Positions 1 through 58,939 of a stretch of DNA of 58,939 bases are shown here, one piece after another; position 1 is the stretch's first letter; every line of letters starts with the position of its first letter. The notes below the pieces were generated by a model. It had not been told where the DNA came from. It made no database searches and saw nothing but the letters and a program-made list of their open reading frames with translations. This stretch comes from an uncultured Bacteroidales bacterium (GTDB lineage Bacteria; Bacteroidota; Bacteroidia; Bacteroidales; UBA10428), in assembly GCA_964492185.1 (NCBI GenBank), contig CAZBJH010000004.1, forward strand, positions 1 to 58,939, read 5' to 3'. The position numbers and the translations under genes were made by a program.

Positions 1-180
1 AAGTGAGCTCTTTAACTTACTTTTTTAAGTGAGTTAAAGAACTTATTTAAAAGTGAGCTCTTGAACACCTTTAAAAATAATTAACGTTGTGAAAAAAAAT
101 TTTAAACCGCGGTATACTAATGTATTCGGGGATTTAAAATTTTGGCAGCAACGCGGATACCGAACATTATTGACAGACAC
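1..180 (-). repeat. Family-A type I module (MITE-like), truncated by the window edge. It carries 3 tandem ~24-nt AAGTGAG-type units at 1-73 and ends ...GGATACCGAACATTATTGACAGACAC followed by TA.
   Basis: Alignable by eye to 13577-13794, 30392-30585, 36669-36910 (opposite orientation) and 47967-48141 (same orientation). Strand '+' is defined as reading 5'-GTGTCTGTCCATAATGTCCGATATC. Confidence 0.85.
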
Positions 181-207
181 TAATTAGTGTCTGTCAATGA
201 ACTCGCA
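161..207. repeat. Back-to-back family-A termini forming a palindrome: TTGACAGACAC-TA-AT-TA-GTGTCTGTCAA, with 14-bp perfect arms at 170-197.
   Basis: The perfect inverted repeat is read directly. The same architecture recurs at 46582-46625 and 30571-30607. Confidence 0.85.
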
Positions 208-330
208 GTGTCTGTTCATAAAGTTTCATTTGCAAGGCTTGCGCAGTCCGAAAATGCGGAGTTTACTAGTCGTAAATGAGCAATTTTCGGGCAAGCGTAA
301 CGCGGCAAATGGGACTTTATGGACAGACAC
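187..330 (+). repeat. Family-A unit made of a truncated type III stub (187-207) plus the type II 123-nt long-hairpin module (208-330). TA flanks it on both sides (185-186 and 331-332).
   Basis: The outer 26-bp stem pairs 208-233 with 305-330 (23 Watson-Crick pairs plus 3 G:T). Homologous copies are at 20642-20764, 30633-30756 and 52332-52454 (reverse). Confidence 0.85.
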
Positions 331-333
331 TAA

Positions 334-1593
334 TTAGTGTGTTACTTCCTTCCCGGTGATTATCCTGTTCAACACATTTTCGATCGTACGAAATTTAAGT
401 TGAATTTCTTCACTTTCTTTCCCGGGAACAGAATCAGAAGTAATACCTGCCCCGGAATACAAAACAGTCGAACCGCCGACAATCTTCATGCAACGAAGGT
501 TAACAAACAATTCAACAGGGTTTTCAATGTTTACCGGTCCAAGATAACCGGCATAAAACTCACGTGAAAACTTTTCATGCCTGGTAATAAATTCATAAGC
601 AGGCTTAACTGGTATACCACAAATAGCAGGTGTGGGGTGTATGCGATTGAGAAGTTCGGCACATTTGGGCAGGTCATTTTTATTTACACTCGCGGTAAAC
701 CCGGAACTCAAATGCATTATATTACCTGCAACAGCCGTTTGCGGGGGAGATACGGTATAATTCTCCAGGCCCGACTGTTGAAAAGCATCTTCAATATAAC
801 AAGTAACAAACTCCTGTTCCGTATATTCCTTATTTGTCCATTTTTCTTCACTACCATTTGACCGGTAACGCTTCGTGCCGGCCAGAGCAACTGTTTTTAA
901 TGTGTTTTTATTAAGAGTAACCAGAAGTTCGGGGCTGCTCCCTGTCCATGTACCAATGCCCGGCAAGGATACCATGGATACAAAAGCATTTTTATATTCT
1001 CCGGCCATACTCAGGAACATCTCCACAATATCAAATGCTGCCGGTAAACTGATCTCTTTCCTGGCAGCCAGTACAACTTTATCAAAATCACCCGACCTGA
1101 TATGTTTCAGGGCCTTCCCCACAACTGATCCGTATTTTCCCAGCTCACCTTTAGGTGGTGTCTTAATACAGCTTTTGTAAAATGAGGGAACAAAATCTTG
1201 ATTCTCCTGTTGATTCTCCTGCAAATCTCCCTGCAATTGTGAATAAATATCATCTGTGCCGGGATCATCCTGGAATAACCTTCCTTCACCTTCATCATAA
1301 CGTATTCCGGAACGGATAAAAACAGAGCCTGAATTTGTGAAATTTTCAAACGGACTGAAAAGAAATCCGGGTGACGATTTTTGGAACCGAAAGCTAAAAT
1401 TATTCTCTGAGGAGGAACCTAAAATGGCACTAACTGTCCTTTTGCCAGGGCGGCGATAGAAAACAACAGGCATACTGCCTTTATATCCCGTATGCAAAAA
1501 TGTCTTAAGTATAACTTTTTTTTCAATATGATCAACCTTAATCATTCCCATTTTCTTATTCCTCTCCCCAATTAGAGTCTGGCCCACAAACAA
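334..1593 (-). CDS. menF: Isochorismate synthase (chorismate-binding enzyme); the start codon is uncertain.
   Basis: Contains chorismate-binding C-terminal motifs (GTWTGSSPELLV, FVNLRCMKI, GAGITSDSVPGKESEE) and is the last gene of a men cluster. Confidence 0.75.
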   Translation of the reverse strand: MFVGQTLIGERNKKMGMIKVDHIEKKVILKTFLHTGYKGSMPVVFYRRPGKRTVSAILGSSSENNFSFRFQKSSPGFLFSPFENFTNSGSVFIRSGIRYDEGEGRLFQDDPGTDDIYSQLQGDLQENQQENQDFVPSFYKSCIKTPPKGELGKYGSVVGKALKHIRSGDFDKVVLAARKEISLPAAFDIVEMFLSMAGEYKNAFVSMVSLPGIGTWTGSSPELLVTLNKNTLKTVALAGTKRYRSNGSEEKWTNKEYTEQEFVTCYIEDAFQQSGLENYTVSPPQTAVAGNIMHLSSGFTASVNKNDLPKCAELLNRIHPTPAICGIPVKPAYEFITRHEKFSREFYAGYLGPVNIENPVELFVNLRCMKIVGGSTVLYSGAGITSDSVPGKESEEIQLKFRTIENVLNRIITGKEVTH

Positions 1594-9929: not shown

Positions 9930-9996
9930 GGGCCTGTTGAAAAAACCCGTAGTACATCATATACAAGGCGGCAAAGCGAAGGTGTATTATAATTAC
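9930..9996 (-). repeat. Family-B repeat fragment, TA-flanked on the left (9928-9929).
   Basis: GGGCCTGTTGAAAAAACCCGTAGTACATCATATACAAGGCGGCAAAGCGAAGGTGTATTATAATTAC aligns with the reverse complement of 58862-58928. Confidence 0.7.
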
Positions 9997-13518: not shown

Positions 13519-13576
13519 AAAGCAGAAGTACAGTATTTTATAACATATCTGTATTTTGAACATGAATACTAATGTA

Positions 13577-13794
13577 GTGTTTATCCATAATGTCCGATAT
13601 CTGCGTTATTGCTCCATTTTTAAATCCTCGAATACCATAGTATACCGCGGTTTAAAATGTTTTTCACAACGTTAATAATTTTTAAAAGTGTTCAAGAGTT
13701 CAATTTAAAATGAGTTCAAGAGCTCACTTCGTCCGGTTCACGCGCCTTGATCTTGAACATTCTGAACAAACACTTTAAGTTTATGGAAAGAATC
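13577..13794 (+). repeat. Family-A type I module with about 2 tandem units, TA-flanked (13575-13576 and 13795-13796).
   Basis: It starts GTGTTTATCCATAATGTCCGATATCTGCG and ends ...GAACATTCTGAACAAACAC plus a 19-nt solo-terminus tail. It is collinear with 30392-30585. Confidence 0.85.
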
Positions 13795-13828
13795 TAATGT
13801 ATTGTCATTTTAAAAATACGGATGCGTA

Positions 13829-20224: not shown

Positions 20225-20308
20225 ACGGGCAAATAGCCTGCATTATTATTATGTAAGGTTTAGACACCCTGCCTCTGCCCTGAACCTGATGCATGAAGAA
20301 TATATATA

Positions 20309-20391
20309 TTGTCTGTCCATAATGTCCGATATGTTAGTGTGCCATGATCTCGAACATTCTGAACAAACACTATTACTTTATAGACAAACTC
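20309..20391 (+). repeat. Internally deleted family-A type I module, with both terminal arms retained.
   Basis: TGTCTGTCCATAATGTCCGATATG is joined to ...GATCTCGAACATTCTGAACAAACAC-TA-TTACTTTATAGACAAACTC-TA. Confidence 0.8.
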
Positions 20392-20521
20392 TATATAGAT
20401 TGTATTTTAAAAATATTTCGCGAAATTCGCAAGATTTCCGAAAATCCCGTGTCAAAACATATTATACTGTTTGAATTATCTGCATTTGAAGGAAACATAA
20501 TTGGTTTCGCGGAGCTAAACA

Positions 20522-20599
20522 GGGTCTGCTGAGAAACACGAAATAAATTTATAATGAGGATAATACGAAGATTAATTGTTTGTAAACCAGAGCATTAAT
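20522..20599 (+). repeat. Family-B repeat, a short form.
   Basis: It begins GGGTCTGCTGAGAAACACGAAATAAATTTATA, which is shared with 48227 and 58695. The rest aligns with the reverse complement of 52497-52556. Confidence 0.8.
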
Positions 20600-20601
20600 T
20601 A

Positions 20602-20764
20602 GAGTCCGCCTATAAAGTAGTTAAAATGTTTATACATACATGTGTCTGTTCAGAAGGTTCCATTTGCAAGGCTCGCGCGGTCCGGAAACGCGGAGTTTAC
20701 TTATCGTAAATGAGCAATTTCCGGACAAGCGTAACGCGGCAAATGGGACTTTATGGACAGACTC
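20602..20764 (+). repeat. Family-A type III (20602-20641) plus type II hairpin (20642-20764) unit, TA-flanked (20600-20601 and 20765-20766).
   Basis: It is collinear with 30593-30756 and with the reverse complement of 52332-52494. It ends 18 nt before the RND adaptor start codon. Confidence 0.85.
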
Positions 20765-28071: not shown

Positions 28072-28211
28072 TAATTCAGGTGTTTGGTTGTAATACTGTT
28101 TTTTTGTTTCTTACTTATTATATGCTAACTGCATTAAAATGGTTAGAAAATTTACACCAATGAAGTAATACAATTGATAAAAACAGATTTATCCTAACCA
28201 AAAAACGGACT

Positions 28212-30353
28212 CTACAATAATACCCCGAGTATCTTTTTGGCAGCAACTGCAACCGATGTGCCGGGCCCGAATATTCCCACTACTCCGGCATTGTACAAAA
28301 AATCATAATCCTGTGCAGGAATAACACCACCGGCAATGACCATAATATCTTCCCTCCCCAATGCTCTCAGTTCATTAATAACTCGCGGTATAAGTGTTTT
28401 GTGTCCACCGGCCAGACTTGATATCCCCAATATATGAACATCATTCTCCACGGCTTGTCTTGCTGCTTCAGCCGGTGTCTGGAACAGCGGTCCGATATCC
28501 ACATCAAAACCTATATCAGCATAGCCCGTTGAAACAACTTTAGCACCTCTGTCGTGTCCGTCCTGCCCCATCTTTGCAATCATAACCCTTGGACGGCGTC
28601 CTTCACTTTCAGCAAATTTATCACACAGCCAGCGGGCTTCTTCAAAATCATTATCGTTGGCCGATTCAGAAGAATAAATGCCTGAAACAGACCGGATGAC
28701 AGCTTTATACCGTCCCGCCACCTTTTCAATTGCCGAAGTTATCTCACCCAGGGTGGAGCGAGCTTTAGCCGCCTCAACCGCAAGTTCCAGTAAATTGCCT
28801 TTCTCTGTTCGTGCAGCCTCTGTTATGCTATCCAGAGCCCTTTGAACCGCAAGGTTATCTCGTTCCTTTTTTAGATTTTCCAGTCTTCTGAGCTGGGATA
28901 AGCGCACGGCTTCATTATCGACTTCAAGGAGATCAATCGGATCTTCTTCATCAAGCCGGTACATGTTTATACCAAGAATAATATCTTTTTTCGAATCGAT
29001 CCGCGCCTGCTTGCGCGCCGCTGCTTCTTCAATACGCGTTTTCGGAATGCCGGTCTCAATTGCTTCGGTCATTCCCCCAAGATCTTCTATCTCCTGAATT
29101 AGTTCCCATGCCTTATGTGCCAGCTCATTGGTGAGAGATTCAACATAATAGGATCCGCCCCACGGATCAACAGATTTTGTTATGGCTGTCTCTTCCTGTA
29201 AAAAAAGTTGTGTGTTCCTGGCTATCCTGGCAGAGAAATCAGTTGGAAGGGCCATTGCTTCATCCATGGCATTGGTGTGTAATGACTGGGTATGGCCCAG
29301 AACTGCCGCCATTGCCTCATTACAGGTACGAGCCACGTTATTGAAGGGATCCTGCTGAGTGAGGCTCCAGCCTGATGTTTGCGAATGAGCCCGCAGTACA
29401 AGTGATTTTGGATTTTTAGGGTTAAACTTTTTCACAATTTTTGCCCACAGCATACGTGCCGCTCTCAATTTGGCAATTTCCATAAAATGGTTCATCCCGA
29501 TACCCCAGAAAAACGATAAACGGGGAGCAAAAGAATCGATATCCATACCTGCATTAATCCCTGTTCGCAAATATTCAAGTCCGTCTGCCAGAGTATAGGC
29601 CAGTTCAATATCAGCTGTGGCACCCGCCTCCTGCATATGATAACCAGAAATGCTAATGGAATTAAACTTAGGCATATTCTGTGATGTATACCTGAAAATA
29701 TCAGCAATAATTCGCATGGATGTCGCGGGAGGATAGATATAGGTATTCCTGACCATGAATTCCTTCAGAATATCATTCTGTATAGTGCCGGTTAGTTCTT
29801 CAAGCTTTGCCCCCTGCTCCTGGGCAGTGACTATATAAAAGGCCATAACGGGCAATACTGCTCCGTTCATGGTCATGGAAACCGACATTTCATTTAAGGG
29901 GATCTGATCAAACAACACTTTCATATCAAGAATTGAATCAATAGCTACTCCTGCTTTACCAACATCTCCAACCACTCTTTCGTGATCCGAATCATATCCC
30001 CGATGAGTTGCCAGATCAAAAGCCACTGACAATCCTTTCTGACCGGCAGCCAGGTTTCGCCTGTAGAAAGCATTCGATTCTTCCGCTGTTGAAAAACCGG
30101 CATATTGCCTGATGGTCCATGGCCTCATAACATACATGGTTGAATAAGGCCCCCGTAAATACGGCGGGATACCTGCTGCATAATTCAAATGTTCAAGATC
30201 CTGCATATCACCGGCATAGTATACCGGCTTCACCTTTATCTGTTCTGCCGTTATCCATTCCCTTTCAGATGGACCTTCTTCAATGCCTTTACCAGCCTCC
30301 ACCTTATAATCTTTATTCGACAGAATATCAATCTTCCCGAAATCTGGTCTCAT
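28212..30353 (-). CDS. mutB: Methylmalonyl-CoA mutase large (catalytic, B12-binding) subunit.
   Basis: It is 713 aa with a mutase TIM-barrel domain and a C-terminal B12-binding DxHxxG motif ([11 protein letters not shown]). Confidence 0.92.
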
Positions 30354-30391
30354 ATAATTACTGTATTTGTATCCATTTTAAGACTATCATA

Positions 30392-30585
30392 GTGTCTGTC
30401 CATAATGTCCGATATCCGCGTTGCTGCTCACATTTTAAATCCTCGAATACTTTAGTATACCGCGGTTTAAAATGTTTTTCACAACGTTAATAATTTTTAA
30501 AGGTGTTCAAGAGCTCACTTCGTTCGGTTCGCGCACCTTGATCTCGAACATTCTGAACAAACACTACGAGTTTATAGACAGACTC
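30392..30585 (+). repeat. Family-A type I module (1 tandem unit). The core is 30392-30564, followed by a 19-nt solo-terminus tail, with TA at 30390, 30565 and 30586.
   Basis: GTGTCTGTCCATAATGTCCGATATCCGCG...GAACATTCTGAACAAACAC-TA-CGAGTTTATAGACAGACTC-TA. Confidence 0.9.
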
Positions 30586-30592
30586 TATGATA

Positions 30593-30756
30593 GAGTCTGT
30601 CTATAAACTGGGAAAATTGTTTAACCGGTCATGTGTCTGTTCATAAAGTTACATTTGCAAAGCTTGCGCAGTGCGGAAATGCGGAGTTTACCAGTCCGTA
30701 AATGAGCAATTTCCAGACAAGCGTAACGCGGCAAATGGGACTTTATGGACAGACAC
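30593..30756 (+). repeat. Family-A type III (30593-30632) plus type II hairpin (30633-30756) unit, TA-flanked (30591-30592 and 30757-30758).
   Basis: It is collinear with 20602-20764. Its right end abuts the mutA stop codon at 30759-30761. Confidence 0.9.
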
Positions 30757-30758
30757 TA

Positions 30759-32618
30759 TCATATACCCAGAATCGAATTAAAACGACTCAGTTCTTCAAC
30801 TATATTTGATTTTATATGAATAAAATAATCAATTCCCATTTGCTTCAATTCTTCCTTATTCTCCGGTGCACCTGCCACAACAATAATTTTCCCCCTTAGC
30901 TGATCCACAACCTCCGGAATAAAGCCGGAATATTCGTTGTCGGAACTGCAAACAACAACAATATCCGCGCCGGAGGAATCAGCAGCATCTATGCCCTCCT
31001 GAACATAAGTAAAGCCGGTATTGTCAATAATCCTGTATCCTGCACATGCAAAGAAATTGCCCGTGAAGGTAGCACGGGCTTTCCTCCAGATAGGATTTCC
31101 AATGGTCAGTAAGAACACAACCGGCTGTTTTCCCGATCGTTCGGTAGCCAGCCTAAGGCGTTCAATTTCTTCCGCCACTCTGCCCTGGTGCAGGGGCTTG
31201 ATTATAGTACCGTTGTGTTTTATGTGTCTGTCCGTTATTGCAGTATCAATCTGATCTGACATTATCTCTTCAGGATTGGCATATTTATTTGTTCCAATCA
31301 GCACTTCTTTTCGATCAGCAACATTCTTCACACGTGCCCGGGCAACCTGGTAAATACTGTCCTGGATTTTACCCTTCAGCAAACCTTTATGGAAGCCTCC
31401 CAGGTCTTCAATTTCAAGAAACAACTTCCAGGCTTCTTCAATAATTGAAGATGTCAGGTTTTCAATATAATAAGAACCCGCGGCGGGATCAATAACCTTA
31501 TCAAAATATGCCTCTTCCTTTAATATGATCTGTGTATTTCTGGCAATACGTTCAGAAAATTCCGAAGGCTTACTAAATGCACTGTCAAACGGGTGTACAT
31601 ATAATGAGTCTGTTCCCCCGATAATGGCTGACATTGATTCGGTAGTCGCCCTGAGCACATTCACATAAGGATCATAAATGGTTTTATTCCAACCGGAAGT
31701 TACAGAATGAATATACATAGCGGCATCCCGGATAAAAGACGGATGATAAGCATGAATAATTTTAGACCAAAGATAGCGGGCAGCCCTTATTTTGGCTATC
31801 TCCATGAAATAATTACAACCAACACCGAAAACAAACTGTATTGCCGGGAAAATATAATTGATTTTTAAACCTGCAACAGTCAGGCGGCTGATATACTCCA
31901 CGGCTTCGGACAAACTAAAAGCCAGTTCCTGCACGATGCCCGAGCCGGCATTGCTGAAATGGCAGCCATTAACGGTCAGTACCTTATAATCCGGAAGTTC
32001 ATTACGAGTCAGTGAGATCATATCAACCAGGACATTAAAATCATCCCGCTCAGATCGTTTAAAGTTACCTGTTAACAGGAGGTCGCCAAGAGGATCATAA
32101 TTCACCGAGCCGGAGATTTTGTTTTTATCAGATCCATGGTCATTTATATAGTCAATTAAGTACCCTATCATTTCCGAGGGGTTCAAAATACCGTTGAAAT
32201 GAATACCTGTTTTCCCGGGATCTATACCCTTCAGCAATTTTTTTAATTCCGCCTTGTTGATAGTTTTTTCTACCGGGAACGTGAATCCGAGAGCTGTAAC
32301 ACCTCTTGAAACAATAAACCGCGCCTTTTTATTTGCTTCCGTTATATTTCCGGCCTGTATATCCTGTCTTATCTCCCAGCTATTGTTTTTTTGCCTGCTT
32401 CCCCTGATAAAAGGATATCTGCCAGGCCTGCCTTCCAGGAAATCTTTGTCCTTCAAATGTTCATTCCGGTAATAGGGTTTAACCCTGATCCCTTCTAATG
32501 TATTCCATACAAGTTTTTTCTCATAATCAGCACCCTTCAGATCCTGAAGGATCTTTTCTTCCCACTCACGGGTACTCACCCCGGGAAATTCGATAAACAA
32601 CGTTTCTTTATTTTCCAT
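30759..32618 (-). CDS. mutA: Methylmalonyl-CoA mutase small subunit.
   Basis: It is a 619-aa paralogue of the large subunit (ERIARNTQIILKEE, AAGSYYIE) that lacks the DxHxxG motif. Confidence 0.85.
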   Translation of the reverse strand: MENKETLFIEFPGVSTREWEEKILQDLKGADYEKKLVWNTLEGIRVKPYYRNEHLKDKDFLEGRPGRYPFIRGSRQKNNSWEIRQDIQAGNITEANKKARFIVSRGVTALGFTFPVEKTINKAELKKLLKGIDPGKTGIHFNGILNPSEMIGYLIDYINDHGSDKNKISGSVNYDPLGDLLLTGNFKRSERDDFNVLVDMISLTRNELPDYKVLTVNGCHFSNAGSGIVQELAFSLSEAVEYISRLTVAGLKINYIFPAIQFVFGVGCNYFMEIAKIRAARYLWSKIIHAYHPSFIRDAAMYIHSVTSGWNKTIYDPYVNVLRATTESMSAIIGGTDSLYVHPFDSAFSKPSEFSERIARNTQIILKEEAYFDKVIDPAAGSYYIENLTSSIIEEAWKLFLEIEDLGGFHKGLLKGKIQDSIYQVARARVKNVADRKEVLIGTNKYANPEEIMSDQIDTAITDRHIKHNGTIIKPLHQGRVAEEIERLRLATERSGKQPVVFLLTIGNPIWRKARATFTGNFFACAGYRIIDNTGFTYVQEGIDAADSSGADIVVVCSSDNEYSGFIPEVVDQLRGKIIVVAGAPENKEELKQMGIDYFIHIKSNIVEELSRFNSILGI

Positions 32619-33425: not shown

Positions 33426-33465
33426 GTGTCCGTCTATAAAGTTGGCAAAATATTTAACCGGTCAT
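33426..33465 (+). repeat. Family-A type III module that overlaps the last 12 nt of fumC.
   Basis: GTGTCCGTCTATAAAGTTGGCAAAATATTTAACCGGTCAT aligns with 30593-30632 and 47887-47926. Confidence 0.8.
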
Positions 33466-34839
33466 TTTATCCGGATCTACCCAACGGTCAAAATCTTCTT
33501 CAGTAACCAGTCCCAGTTCCAGTGCAGCCTCCCTGAGGGTAGTGCCTTCTTTATAAGCTTTTTTTGCAATTTTTGCAGCATTTTCATACCCGATATGGGT
33601 ATTCAATGCAGTAACCAGCATCAATGAGTTTTCAAGATTTCTTTTTATAAGGCTATGGTTAGGCTCAATGCCAACTGCACAATTATCATTGAACGACAGG
33701 CAGGCATCACCCAGTAATCTGGCTGACTGCAACAGATTATGGATCATCACCGGTTTAAATACATTAAGTTCAAAATTACCGTTCATACCCCCGGTAGCTA
33801 TAGCAACATCATTTCCTGCAACCTGCACACATACCATCGTTAGTGCCTCTGCCTGTGTAGGATTAACCTTTCCCGGCATAATGGATGAGCCGGGCTCGTT
33901 TGCCGGAATGATGATCTCGCCTATACCGCTCCTGGGTCCGGAAGCCATTATACGAATATCATTAGCTATTTTCATAAGGCTCACCGCCAACTGCCTTAAT
34001 GCCCCCGAACATTCAACAATAGCATCATGTGCTGCAAGCGCTTCGAATTTATTCTCTGCCGACCGGAAAGGAAGATTGGTTAATTCCGCGATTTTCAAAG
34101 CTACAAGCTCTGAATAGCCCTTAGGTGTGTTGATCCCCGTACCAACGGCAGTGCCTCCCAGTGCCAGTTCTGAAAGGTGTGGCAGTGTGTTCTTCAGGGC
34201 TTTTATTCCATGGTCGAGTTGCGAAACATATCCTGAAAATTCCTGTCCAAGGGTCAGCGGTGTGGCATCCATCCAGTGTGTTCGACCGATTTTTACTATG
34301 TTATGAAATTCTGCAGATTTTTTCTTAAGTGTATCTTTCAGCTTTTCAATGCCGGGAAGCGTTATCTCCATGATCATTTTATAAGCTGCAATATGCATGG
34401 CTGTCGGGAATGTATCATTGGATGACTGTGATTTGTTCACATCATCATTTGGATGTATGAATTTTATATCATCATCAGGCTGACCGCCATGCAATACTTG
34501 TGAACGGTTGGCTATCACCTCATTAACATTCATGTTTGATTGCGTTCCCGACCCGGTCTGCCAGATAACCAGCGGGAAATGGCTGTCAAGCCTGCCATCA
34601 AGAATCTCATCACATACCCTGGAGATCAATGTAGCCTTTTCATTCTCCAGCACTCCAAGCTCAGCATTCGTAATAGCAGCTGCCTTTTTCAGGTAAGCAA
34701 AAGCCCTGATAATCTCCCCTGGCATTTTCTGATCACCTATCCTGAAATTATCCTTCGACCTCTGTGTTTGGGCTCCCCAGTATTTATCAGCAGGTACTTT
34801 TACCTGGCCCATTGTATCGCGTTCTATCCTGTATTGCAT
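33454..34839 (-). CDS. fumC: Class II fumarate hydratase.
   Basis: Contains the [13 protein letters not shown] signature and is 461 aa. Confidence 0.92.
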
Positions 34840-34891
34840 AATGTCCGGTATCTGCGTTGCTGCTCACATTTTGCCAACTTTATTGACAAAC
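34837..34891 (+). repeat. Chimeric family-A mini-element: the type I 5' arm is fused to an inverted type III 5' arm.
   Basis: CATAATGTCCGGTATCTGCGTTGCTGCTCAC joins ATTTTGCCAACTTTATTGACAAAC. The junction lies in the heptamer ACATTTT, which both parent modules share. CAT at 34837-34839 is the fumC start codon. Confidence 0.75.
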
Positions 34892-34904
34892 TTTAAATAA
34901 TGCA

Positions 34905-36668: not shown

Positions 36669-36910
36669 GTGCCTGTCCATAATGTCCGATATCTGCATTG
36701 CTGCTCAATCGAACGAAGTGAGCTCTTGAACTCACTTTTAAATGAGTTCAAGAACTCACTTAAAAGTAAGCTCTTGAACACTTTTAAAAATAATTAACGT
36801 TGTGAAAACTTTTTAAATCCTCAAATACTTTAGTATACCGCGGTTTAAAATGTTCACGCGCCTTGATCCCGAACATTCTGAACAAACACTACGAGTTTAT
36901 CAACAGACTC
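36669..36910 (+). repeat. Family-A type I module with rearranged internal order (A-C'-B-D) and 3 tandem units.
   Basis: Segment 36708-36808 (tandem units plus TTAACGTTGTGAAAA) is inverted and lies before the B hairpin (36809-36853), unlike in the other copies. Confidence 0.8.
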
Positions 36911-46581: not shown

Positions 46582-46625
46582 CGGACATTATTGACAGGCA
46601 CTAAATAGTGTCTGTCAATAAACTT
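46582..46625. repeat. Solo pair of back-to-back family-A termini: CGGACATTATTGACAGGCAC-TA-AA-TA-GTGTCTGTCAATAAACTT.
   Basis: It is a near-perfect palindrome with the same architecture as 161-207. It lies in the divergent dxs/OmpA-family spacer. Confidence 0.8.
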
Positions 46626-46806
46626 AACATTCAAAGTTAATAATTATTATCGATAAAAGTTGAGAGTTTTTTCCGCTTATCGTAATTTCAGCCTGTTAAA
46701 AAATAAATCTTCGTAAATTGAGTTTATACGTAAAACAGAAATAATACGGAAAATGAAAACACGATCCCTGATAAATCTCAAAATACGAGGCATAAAAATA
46801 AAAAAC

Positions 46807-47886: not shown

Positions 47887-47926
47887 GTGTATGTCAATAA
47901 AGTTGGCAAAATGTTCAACCGGTAAT
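47887..47926 (+). repeat. Family-A type III module.
   Basis: GTGTATGTCAATAAAGTTGGCAAAATGTTCAACCGGTAAT aligns with 33426-33465. Confidence 0.8.
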
Positions 47927-47966
47927 ACAGAATAGCCATATATCCTATGCCGTTTATAAAGTCATA

Positions 47967-48141
47967 GTGTTTGTTCAGAATGTTCAAGATCAAGGCGCGC
48001 GAACCGAACGAAGTGAGCTCTTGAACACCTTTAAAAATTATTAACGTTGTGAAAAACATTTTAAACCGCGGTATACGCTAGGGTATTCGAGGATTTAAAA
48101 TTTTGGCAGCAACGCGGATATCGGGCATTATGGAGAGACAC
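47967..48141 (-). repeat. Family-A type I module (1 tandem unit), TA-flanked (47965-47966 and 48142-48143).
   Basis: GTGTTTGTTCAGAATGTTCAAGATC...GGATATCGGGCATTATGGAGAGACAC is the reverse complement of the 30392-30564 arrangement. Confidence 0.88.
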
Positions 48142-48226
48142 TAAATAGTGTAAAGGTAAATTTACGAGGGGCTATTTTTTGGTACCCTGTCAGCATGGAC
48201 TCATATCCCCTTTTGTAAAGTAATTC

Positions 48227-48299
48227 GGGCCTGCTGAAAAACACGAAATAAATTTATATTCAAAACAATTTTGATGCACTACAGACTTTTTCAGCAGAC
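48227..48299 (+). repeat. Family-B repeat, a 73-nt short form with inverted ends GCCTGCTGAAAAA/TTTTTCAGCAGAC.
   Basis: It shares GGGCCTGCTGAAAAACACGAAATAAATTTATA with 20522 and 58695. Confidence 0.8.
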
Positions 48300-50926: not shown

Positions 50927-52195
50927 TTAATCATCTATCCTTGAATCATTACCGGTAGTAGCGTATAATCCAATCATGGCTCCGGTAAAACCACCGGAAA
51001 CATTAGTGCTAAGGATATCACCGGAAACAATTCCTCCTAAATTCCGGAAATCATCGTCATCAGTGGCATATGCAAATCCATATTCATCGCCATTGGCTTT
51101 CACCTGAAGTTTAATCGGTTTCTTAATATCAATTTGGATACTTGTCACTATTTTAGATACAGCCTCTGGTTTTCTATTGCGTTTGCTTTCAGTTCTCTCC
51201 AATAGCAGCATATAATCCTCTCCCTTTTTTGTGATTCCGAATACATAATTCGAAGATTCATTTTGTAAGCAAACAATTCCGGCTAAATCTTTTTCAGAAT
51301 CCGGCTTATAATCAATGGTTGTTGTGAAAGAGAAGCCTTTATGTTGTTGTCTGTAGAAAAGGGTTGATGTAGGTCTAAGCTCCTTAATATTCGCTTCGAA
51401 AGGATTAATTTGCAACCCCTCCCCGGTCAATTCGATAAAACGCTCCCGTGGACCTCTTAACCCAAATGAGTTTCTCAGAAATATCAACACCTCCATCAAC
51501 AATGATTTTATCACTACCTTCAATCACCTGATCTTTATCTAAATCATAATCCCAGATTTTATTACCCGATGTCCATTATAAAGTTCTTTTACAGAATCAT
51601 GCGCATCATTATGAACAACATAAGCTTTGCTATCATCGTCGAAGAAAATGGACGGATCAATCCCGTTAAAATCCACCTTTATAGGTTCGCTCCAACCTTG
51701 CATAGGATCTTTGATCTTCACAATAATATTACCCAAACCACCAGCAAAGGCTGTTGTTATCATATAAAAAGTGCTGTTGCCAGGATTGTATGCAATCGCT
51801 GGTGCATAAACACCATGGCTTATTCCGGCTTTACTCACATCCAGTTGGGATGTTCGGTCAAGTACATGCCCAATTTGAGTCCAGTTTACCAAATCGTGAC
51901 TATGAAAAATCGTAACTCCGGGAAACATCGCAAACGATGAACAAATCAAATAATAATCATCATCCTTCCTGACGATGGAAGGATCCGGATAGCATCCTTG
52001 TAAAACAGGATTATAAAACTCATCCGGTGCCAATATATAATCTTTGTAAACATGGTCGTTCCCCTGATAAACAACCTTCGAGAAAATTGGTATATTCTTT
52101 GGTGATTTACTTTCTGTATCTCCATTTCCCAATATTACCCCAAACAAACTCATCGCCATAATAAGGCTTGTTATTCTAATTCTTACTTGCTTCAT
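50927..52195 (-). pseudogene. Decayed GH43 beta-xylosidase/arabinofuranosidase with frameshifts and an internal deletion.
   Basis: The N-terminal catalytic part (51539-52195) and the C-terminal concanavalin-like domain (50927-51523) are in different frames. A third frame between them reads KIWDYDLDKDQVIEGSDKIIVDGGVDISEKLIW. The combined length is well short of a full two-domain enzyme. Confidence 0.65.
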
Positions 52196-52331: not shown

Positions 52332-52494
52332 GTGTCTTTCCATAAAGTCCCATTTGCCGCGTTACGCTTGTCCGAAAATTGCTCATTTACGACAAGTAAA
52401 CTCTGCATTTTCGGACCGCGCGAGCCTTGCAAATGGAACCTTCTGAACAGAAACATGTATGGATAAATATTTCAACTACTTTATAGACTGACTC
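52332..52494 (-). repeat. Family-A type II hairpin (52332-52454) plus type III (52455-52494) unit in reverse orientation, TA-flanked (52330-52331 and 52495-52496).
   Basis: It is the reverse complement of the arrangement at 20602-20764. Confidence 0.85.
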
Positions 52495-58694: not shown

Positions 58695-58928
58695 GGGTCT
58701 GCTGAAAAACACGGAATTAATTTATAACCAACACAATAGGGTAACTAATTGATAGTTAAGTGCAAGGTTTTTGACGCGTATTTATAAAATCCTTTGCACT
58801 TATTAAGGATAATAATTCGTTAGTCTGTAGCACATCATCTACCGCGTTGGCTGCAGCTCGCGGTATTATTATACAGCTTCGCATTGCCGCCTTGTATCTG
58901 GTGCACTACAAGCTTTTCCAGCAAACCC
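58695..58928 (+). repeat. Family-B repeat, the full-length 234-nt form with inverted ends, TA-flanked (58693-58694 and 58929-58930).
   Basis: The left end is GGGTCTGCTGAAAAAC and the right end reverse-complements to GGGTTTGCTGGAAAAG. It has internal hairpins AAGTGCAAGG..CCTTTGCACTT and TACCGCG..CGCGGTA. It is followed by TT-TA-GAGTC, a family-A terminus cut by the window edge. Confidence 0.8.
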
Positions 58929-58939
58929 TATTTAGAGTC

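Follow-up and report, generated by a model that had tools for sequence, protein, structure and literature searches.

How did 365 nt of repeated, non-coding DNA come to lie between mutA and mutB, the two genes of methylmalonyl-CoA mutase, a two-subunit enzyme, in an uncultured member of the Bacteroidales? The locus belongs to a metagenome contig of 58,939 nt (CAZBJH010000004.1, 41% G+C), which was analysed at its full length and is referred to here as the window. The sequence in question (30392-30756) is a composite of modules that recur in other intergenic spacers of the window and that we call family A. An earlier note, made from the letters of the window, had described these modules as a mosaic repeat flanked by TA and had compared it with miniature inverted-repeat transposable elements (MITEs) of the IS630/Tc1-mariner type, as well as with the repetitive extragenic palindromes and bacterial interspersed mosaic elements (REP/BIME) of enterobacteria. 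Our analysis indicates that family A very probably consists of high-copy non-autonomous DNA transposons, i.e. MITEs, flanked by a 6-bp (rarely 7-bp) duplication of a TAWWTA target (W, A or T). The TA seen by the earlier note is the outermost two bases of this hexamer.

Structure of the family A elements

Family A occupies about a dozen spacers, as had been reported, and makes up about 3% of the window. Its 14-nt terminus, GTGTCTGTCCATAA, is found 35 times with up to three mismatches in the 58.9-kb window, as compared to 4.5 ± 2.1 times in shuffled sequence, and none of 100 shuffles reached 35. A repeat search of the window independently recovered the three module types of the earlier note at the coordinates given there. 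Type I copies are present at 1-180, 13577-13794, 30392-30585, 36669-36910 and 47967-48141, with an internally deleted copy at 20309-20391; type II copies are found at 208-330, 20642-20764, 30633-30756 and 52332-52454, and type III copies start at 20602, 30593, 33426, 47887 and 52455. This description stands except in two respects: the type I copy at 47967-48141 has a degenerate outer end that extends it to 47946, and type III, although it recurs as described, is not a separate module, as set out below.

Statistics were drawn from a set of 1.28 Mb that comprises the window and 138 loci (1.2 Mb, numbered L below), after overlaps between two sister metagenome assemblies had been removed by sequence. 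About 600 termini were sorted into six classes by the sequence immediately inside them. The two ends of an element differ from each other. End-1 is formed by one terminus, GTGTCTGTCCATAA, while End-2 is formed by an outer terminus, GAGTYTGTCWATAA (GAGTYTGTC(T/A)ATAA), a linker, and an inner terminus that points the same way as the outer one, GTGTYTGTTCAGAA. The inner terminus begins 21 or 40 nt after the outer one, the linker measuring 7 nt in the 21-nt module 'e' and 26 nt in the 40-nt type III. The termini are inverted across the element, GTGTCTGTCCATAA facing GAGTYTGTCWATAA or GTGTYTGTTCAGAA at the opposite end.

Two main units are built in this way, one of 141 nt and one of 163 nt, and no open reading frame (ORF) is common to the copies. 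The 141-nt unit, composed of blocks a-b-d-e, accounts for 63 of the 103 type I copies; with a mean identity of 93.7% to the consensus, these copies look recent. The 163-nt unit consists of type III and the 123-nt type II hairpin core. Since the termini combine regularly and III and II are found together 56 times, type III is the outer part of End-2 of this III+II element and not an independent module. Type I variants of 194-265 nt carry in addition a 53-nt internal cassette 'c', and the longest variants of the elements measure 265-344 nt. The type I copy at the mutA-mutB locus is one of the 194-nt variants, i.e. the 141-nt unit plus the 53-nt cassette. The cassette, of which an element can hold 1-4 copies, contains 24-nt sub-repeats of the GTTCAAGAGCTCAC type and lies either to the right of block b or, inverted, on its left, as seen by comparing 30392-30585 with 36669-36910 and at L074, L110 and L109. 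These two positions are symmetry-equivalent because short inverted repeats bound block b, and nested mini-insertion, inversion and recombination are all candidates for the origin of the cassette. Chimeras are rare (type III joined to a type I body, n = 2; module 'e' joined to a type II core, n = 1, at 187-330 of the window); truncated solo ends and internally deleted copies are common.

Target-site duplication

The earlier note had proposed to count the copies and to tabulate their flanking dinucleotides. Copies are indeed numerous, with 160 non-redundant simple elements in the 1.28 Mb, on which the flank counts are based, and TA does lie beside nearly all termini; however, the flank proved to be a direct repeat of the hexamer TAWWTA rather than of TA. 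Whichever of the four classes an outer terminus belongs to, the six bases before it read T (90%) A (90%) W W T (90%) A (95%). When the left and right flanks are compared position by position, identity is 0.83-0.89 at all six positions in register 6 alone, and the other registers match just where TA coincides with TA. A perfect 6-bp direct repeat encloses 95 of the 160 elements, whereas 23 are expected from shuffling the partners. A perfect 7-bp repeat was found twice, namely in the window (TAATGTA at 13570-13576 and 13795-13801) and at L111.

The middle dinucleotides of the left and right hexamers mostly agree (AT/AT, 31; TT/TT, 26; AA/AA, 24; AC/AC, 4; GT/GT, 4; CT/CT, 3), off-diagonal pairs being few. 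Hexamers that deviate from TA at one end or the other are duplicated whole (TGTTTA|TGTTTA at L068, TAAATT|TAAATT at L128), and because ten different rare hexamers are duplicated exactly, the repeat stems from the target and not from the element. Relative to the orientation of the element, TATTTA is found 25 times and TAAATA 15 times, i.e. both orientations occur, and the copy in Marinilabilia rubra has TATTTA on either side. Beyond the hexamer, flanks that do not belong to another element resemble background, with a depletion of G at position -7 only. Moreover, 29% of the outer termini adjoin another element across one common hexamer, as expected if the target is restored on either side of the element at each insertion. 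The flank is a true target-site duplication of 6 bp, occasionally 7 bp, with the consensus TA-WW-TA. The joints TA-AT-TA (181-186) and TA-TGA-TA (30586-30592), which had been read as two TA sites each, are single 6- and 7-bp duplications common to the neighbouring elements.

A junction of this kind also resembles the core of a site-specific recombination system. In a conservative reaction, the 14-nt inverted arms and the 6-bp spacer would make up a dif- or lox-like core, with the hexamer as the crossover region common to attL and attR. Junctions such as GACAGACAC-TAATTA-GTGTCTGTC show exactly this geometry, the 29% of termini given above lie in such junctions, and a spacer of 6-7 bp suits the overlap regions of tyrosine recombinases. 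The flanks past the hexamer, however, are unlike the arms, and the target is therefore without a second binding site. Furthermore, at least 13 hexamers are duplicated exactly, the asymmetric ones in both directions (25 against 15), which suits a duplicated target better, and no recombinase gene is associated with the elements. Site-specific recombination is thus disfavoured, and we consider it an improbable explanation.

The mutA-mutB locus

In the window, mutA is the ORF 30759-32618 (minus strand), which contains an MM_CoA_mutase domain only and whose homologues are annotated as small subunit, and mutB is the ORF 28212-30353 (minus strand), which contains an MM_CoA_mutase and a B12-binding domain. 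As the earlier note had it, the mutA stop (30759-30761) and the mutB start (30353) enclose the 365-nt I+III+II composite. Its first member is the 194-nt type I element with blocks a-b-c-d-e (30392-30585, plus strand) and its second a 164-nt III+II element (30593-30756, plus strand). The two copies of the duplicated 7-bp target, TATCATA, are found at 30385-30391 on the left and at 30757-30763 on the right, the right copy containing the mutA stop TGA (minus strand); the joint between the members, TATGATA at 30586-30592, differs in the central base. Read in the direction of transcription, the order is ...GGGTATA TGA TA, III+II, TATCATA, type I, TATGATA GTCTTAAAATGGATACAAATACAGTAATTAT ATG, so that the heptamer is present three times on the coding strand (TATGATA, TATCATA, TATGATA), the first time with the mutA stop inside it. 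In the simplest history, one 7-bp target received two insertions, and the central base of the middle copy was altered later.

Removal of both elements leaves a spacer of 38 nt in place of the present 405 nt. The orthologous spacer, to which the earlier note had pointed as a check, was found in two related metagenome-assembled genomes (MAGs; about 80% MutB identity), where 44-46 nt without any element separate mutA from mutB. As a description, the statement that the composite splits the mutA-mutB operon is borne out; the empty spacer of the MAGs is evidence for presence and absence at the level of the family, not an exact empty site. Two insertions at a TATCATA that overlaps the mutA stop would have taken the spacer from an ancestral length of about 38-46 nt to one of 405 nt. 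The same two MAGs contain a III+II copy directly after the mutB stop, which is absent from that position in the window, and the TAG that ends their mutB takes its TA from the duplication and its G from the first base of the terminus.

Just after the mutB stop, the window itself reads TTG TAG AGTCCGTTTTTTGG (28195-28215), i.e. TA followed by GAGTCCGT. This may be a decayed solo terminus at the place where the related MAGs hold a full III+II element, the resemblance being weak.

Folding, gene context and stop codons

On the mutA-to-mutB strand, the composite is predicted to fold into three long hairpins (-142 kcal/mol, z = -11.4). A consensus scan further predicts that the head-to-head termini form a terminator-like stem of 19 bp between mutA and mutB (30569-30609, minus strand). 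A sigma-70-like hybrid promoter facing mutB is predicted at 30375-30402 (minus strand), where TGGACA of End-1 and a native TAAAAT give 10 of 12 matches to a consensus from which the promoters of the Bacteroidota are known to differ. The terminator and promoter predictions are taken as leads only.

These features raise the possibility that selection maintains family A primarily for a function in RNA or regulation, its modules serving as terminators, mRNA stabilisers or small RNAs, and that mobility is secondary. The strong fold and the predicted terminator-like stem would agree with such a role, as would the one third of gene-3'-facing sides that touch a stop codon, and the type II consensus is 96% conserved where mutB DNA is 74.5% identical. 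The alignment of 54 copies of the 123-nt core has a mean column identity of 92%, and the frequent one-sided changes in the hairpin keep G-U pairs. However, RNAalifold detected no covariation among these 54 type II copies (covariation term -0.91 kcal/mol; compensatory change in 1 of 38 pairs). Rfam 15 gave no match at gathering score for the window and, at E below 1, chance-level microRNA and small nucleolar RNA matches only for the composite (E of at least 0.07), so that the modules hit no curated Rfam family, a possibility that the earlier note had raised against their novelty. The elements show no orientation bias with respect to the flanking genes (33 same, 37 opposite; type I, 20 and 27; type II, 13 and 10), which is unexpected for an RNA element or a terminator, and the frequency of truncated and internally deleted copies also speaks against such a function. 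A primary RNA or regulatory role kept by selection is therefore very unlikely.

Divergent spacers, which hold two promoters, are depleted (7 of 105 elements), and 55 of the 181 gene-3'-facing sides of arrays involve a stop codon, which is formed by TA and the G of the terminus in 32 and by the first three bases of the duplication in 23. By a rough count, about half of the TAWWTA sites that overlap a stop codon are occupied, against about 11% of the other intergenic sites. We read this pattern as the result of target preference and purifying selection, and as no proof of function.

Distribution of family A

A 20-nt piece of the type II core was found in at least six other Bacteroidales MAGs and in the isolate Marinilabilia rubra WTE16, and a 20-nt piece of the type I end in at least 113 stretches of the two sister metagenomes. 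Since independent JGI, Logan and NCBI assemblies as well as an isolate genome carry copies, family A is not an assembly artefact. The window itself agrees with JGI contig Ga0307422_1000267 at 99.99% identity across 12.6 kb and is 100% identical to a Logan assembly. Both ends of the window fall inside repeat copies, which indicates that the assembly broke in repeats. The nearest homologue of its MutA among 5.8 billion proteins searched is just 56% identical, and the organism is therefore without a close sequenced relative; it is an uncultured member of the Bacteroidales related to Marinilabilia.

Overlaps between the assemblies are essentially identical, one site excepted. At that site (L036, 2480-2800, against L085, 4030-4460), one of the sister assemblies has two tandem type I copies and the other a single recombinant copy, which reflects either recombination between tandem copies or assembly collapse.

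Search for a transposase

The statement that the window contains no transposase is correct, and the gene bounded by or adjoining family A termini that the earlier note had suggested looking for, whether for a transposase or for a RAYT, was found neither in the window nor in the 138 loci. No ORF recurs between loci except ordinary paralogues. Pairs of termini 600-5000 bp apart gave 10 candidates, all of which enclose housekeeping genes and no transposase; the genes enclosed by such distant pairs include those for a trypsin-like protease, a sigma-70 factor, TIM and thymidylate kinase, as well as fumC. Solo termini run into unrelated sequence, in which no transposase was seen. Ten window ORFs that adjoin elements encode RecX, RF2, fumarase, a GH43 protein, an outer-membrane barrel, or proteins without family. 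In plasmid and phage collections, the composite has no match and the termini alone have none or chance matches, and a scan of viral contigs with the End-1 terminus gave no match.

Two kinds of element had been named by the earlier note. It had likened family A to MITEs of the IS630/Tc1-mariner type, which duplicate the TA dinucleotide, and indeed the elements are short and non-coding with inverted termini, and TA adjoins nearly every one of these (93% and 91% in register 2). Yet this TA is the end of a longer repeat whose four positions further out match equally well (0.83-0.89 in register 6), and exact duplication extends to the variable middle bases and to hexamers other than TA-type ones, for example TGTTTA and TAAATT. 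A duplication of TA alone would require every target to have been an internally repeated TAWWTAWWTA, and no IS630-like gene was seen in the DNA examined. This assignment has to be given up, and we regard it as highly improbable. The spread of REP/BIME-like palindromes by a RAYT (HUH) transposase, suggested by the mosaic layout in spacers, the hairpin-forming units and the high density, is almost certainly not the explanation, as the units measure 141-265 nt and are not palindromes of 20-40 nt, as clear 6-bp target duplications are present whereas HUH single-strand transposition (IS200/IS605 and RAYT systems) is not known to make any, and as no RAYT-like ORF was found among the tested genes of the window, the candidate ORFs beside termini and the 1.2 Mb of related loci.

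Other elements in the window

The window opens within a type I element (1-180, minus strand), which is cut by the window start and whose End-1 is found at 167-180. TAATTA at 181-186 is a target duplication common to this element and to its head-to-head neighbour, the 144-nt chimera of the 21-nt module 'e' and the 123-nt type II core (187-330, plus strand). TAATTA is repeated at 331-336, where it holds the stop codon of the ORF 334-1593 (minus strand). The type I element at 13577-13794 (plus strand), bounded by the perfect TAATGTA repeat described above, measures 218 nt and contains extra cassette sequence. The internally deleted type I element (20309-20391, plus strand) is reduced to 83 nt with blocks a-d-e and lies between TATATA at 20303-20308 and at 20392-20397. 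It is followed by a 163-nt III+II element (20602-20764, plus strand) with TAATTA on one side and TAATAA on the other.

Both ends of fumC (minus strand) touch family A. Its last three codons and stop (33454-33465) lie inside a solo type III outer end (33426-33465, plus strand), and its ATG adjoins, at 34837-34839, a truncated chimeric element. In this chimera (34837-34893, minus strand), a type I End-1 without its first 9 nt is combined with a type III outer end, the next six bases (34894-34899) being TAAATA. The type I element at 36669-36910 (plus strand) reaches 242 nt with three cassette copies to the left of block b (a-C'-c-C'-b-d-e), and its flanks are decayed. At 46582-46628, two solo termini stand head to head across TAAATA (46602-46607) as remnants. 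Next come a solo type III outer end (47887-47926, plus strand) and the type I element with the degenerate outer end (47946-48141, minus strand; outer end at 47946-47966), which is followed by TAAATA at 48142-48147. A further 163-nt III+II element (52332-52494, minus strand) is flanked by TAAATA and TAATTA, and the window closes with GAGTC (58935-58939, plus strand), the beginning of one more outer terminus of family A, which the window end cuts off.

A second family, B, of about 234 nt was also observed. Its termini, GGGTCTGCTGAAAAAC...GTTTTTCAGCAGACCC, resemble those of family A (shared G-GTCTG----A-AA). The window holds a full copy at 58695-58928, short derivatives at 48227-48299 and 20522-20595 and a fragment at about 9930-9985, and 19 copies were found in the loci. 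Family B is likewise flanked by 6- or 7-bp TAWWTA duplications (for example TATTTA|TATTTA at L074 and TAACCTA|TAACCTA at L089) and adjoins family A termini across one common hexamer. It was probably moved by the same transposase as family A or by a related one.

Apart from the repeats, a gene for a GH43 glycoside hydrolase is split at 50927-52195 (minus strand) into an ORF for the catalytic domain (51539-52195) and an ORF for a C-terminal beta-sandwich (50927-51523), a split that points to a frameshift, to a pseudogene or to an error in sequencing.

Origin and spread of family A

Family A shows the features by which MITEs are recognised: small size, no coding capacity, inverted termini, a target-site duplication and many similar copies. 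The MITE nature that the earlier note had deduced from short non-coding modules with inverted termini, piled up in spacers, is thus upheld, although not the type of element to which it was assigned. The family is apparently new and uncurated, Rfam giving no match.

Several observations weigh against family A being a set of MITEs. The window, the 138 loci and the plasmid, phage and viral collections yielded neither an autonomous copy nor a transposase with matching termini. The sole difference between assemblies (L036 against L085) is a recombination or collapse of tandem copies, and no clean pair of filled and empty sites between close strains was obtained, the nearest mutA homologue being 56% identical. 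At the mutA-mutB locus, the flank of the composite measures 7 bp and its middle copy differs centrally (TATGATA against TATCATA). Finally, the type II consensus is 95.9% identical (5 of 123 positions differ) between lineages whose mutB DNA is 74.5% identical, namely L003-L025 on the one hand and the window with L026 onwards on the other; the scan was made with an exact 20-mer, and the bias from it touches no more than 20 of the positions. Either horizontal spread or a constraint acting on the entire hairpin is needed to account for this difference in identity, which a MITE model does not explain.

On the MITE model, a transposase supplied in trans would bind the termini, cut the target with a stagger of 6 bp, sometimes 7 bp, at TA-N2/3-TA and join the element to it, whereby the target would be duplicated. 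Every insertion would recreate the target hexamer on both sides, and because of this later insertions would adjoin earlier ones, building head-to-head arrays and 'mosaics' that share a hexamer. Insertions inside genes or promoters would be lost; since the target provides TAA, or a TA that the G of the terminus completes to TAG, the surviving copies would gather at stop codons.

One could go further and propose, rather speculatively, that families A and B are the footprints of a transposase so far undescribed in the Bacteroidota, characterised by a TA-N2/3-TA target, a 6/7-bp stagger and an asymmetric end with two binding sites, which could represent a new IS (insertion sequence) family or a Tn552/Mu-like enzyme acting on MITEs. 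Its insertions would systematically land on stop codons and rebuild them. As for the unusually conserved 123-nt hairpin, either mobility would depend on it or it would have passed horizontally from genus to genus. We hold this extended proposal to be possible but unlikely.

MITE families of the Bacteroidota are poorly catalogued, and family A is a dense one. Its mark of insertion is clear as well as unusual, in that the 6/7-bp TAWWTA duplication restores the target of the element, and copies are found on stop codons and within the operon of a two-subunit enzyme. Because the cultured M. rubra carries family A, the transposase and any effects on expression are open to experiment. Moreover, once the family is known, metagenome assemblies of these lineages become easier to close, and it provides a marker for strain typing.

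Comparison with known systems

Enterobacterial REP/BIME sequences share with family A the mosaic of short modules in spacers between housekeeping genes, but REPs are palindromes of 20-40 nt, have no target duplications and are linked to RAYTs, and family A differs on all three counts. MITEs of the IS630/Tc1-mariner group are closer, with inverted termini, TA beside the termini and a palindromic AT-rich target context; their defining duplication is the 2-bp TA, whereas that of family A is 6 bp.

Tn552, Mu, Tn7, Tn402-type elements and IS21 have several binding repeats per end and 5-7-bp duplications, and End-2 of family A has two direct copies of the terminus, a likeness that is a lead only. 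Tn552 reportedly makes a variable duplication of 6 or 7 bp. Unlike the Tn552/Mu/Tn7/IS21 group, family A has termini without the canonical TG start, and no rve-type transposase or ATPase gene was found with it.

The Correia/NEMIS elements of Neisseria, RUP of Streptococcus pneumoniae and Nezha of cyanobacteria are, like family A, short and non-coding, with inverted termini, duplications and AT-rich targets. Correia and RUP duplicate TA, while family A duplicates the 6-bp (rarely 7-bp) TA-WW-TA, and it stands apart from typical MITEs in its asymmetric ends, with one terminus opposed to two direct copies, and in having no known partner IS. In their hundreds of spacer copies, their hairpins, their nested and tandem arrangements and the breaks that they cause in assemblies, bacterial MITEs and family A are alike.

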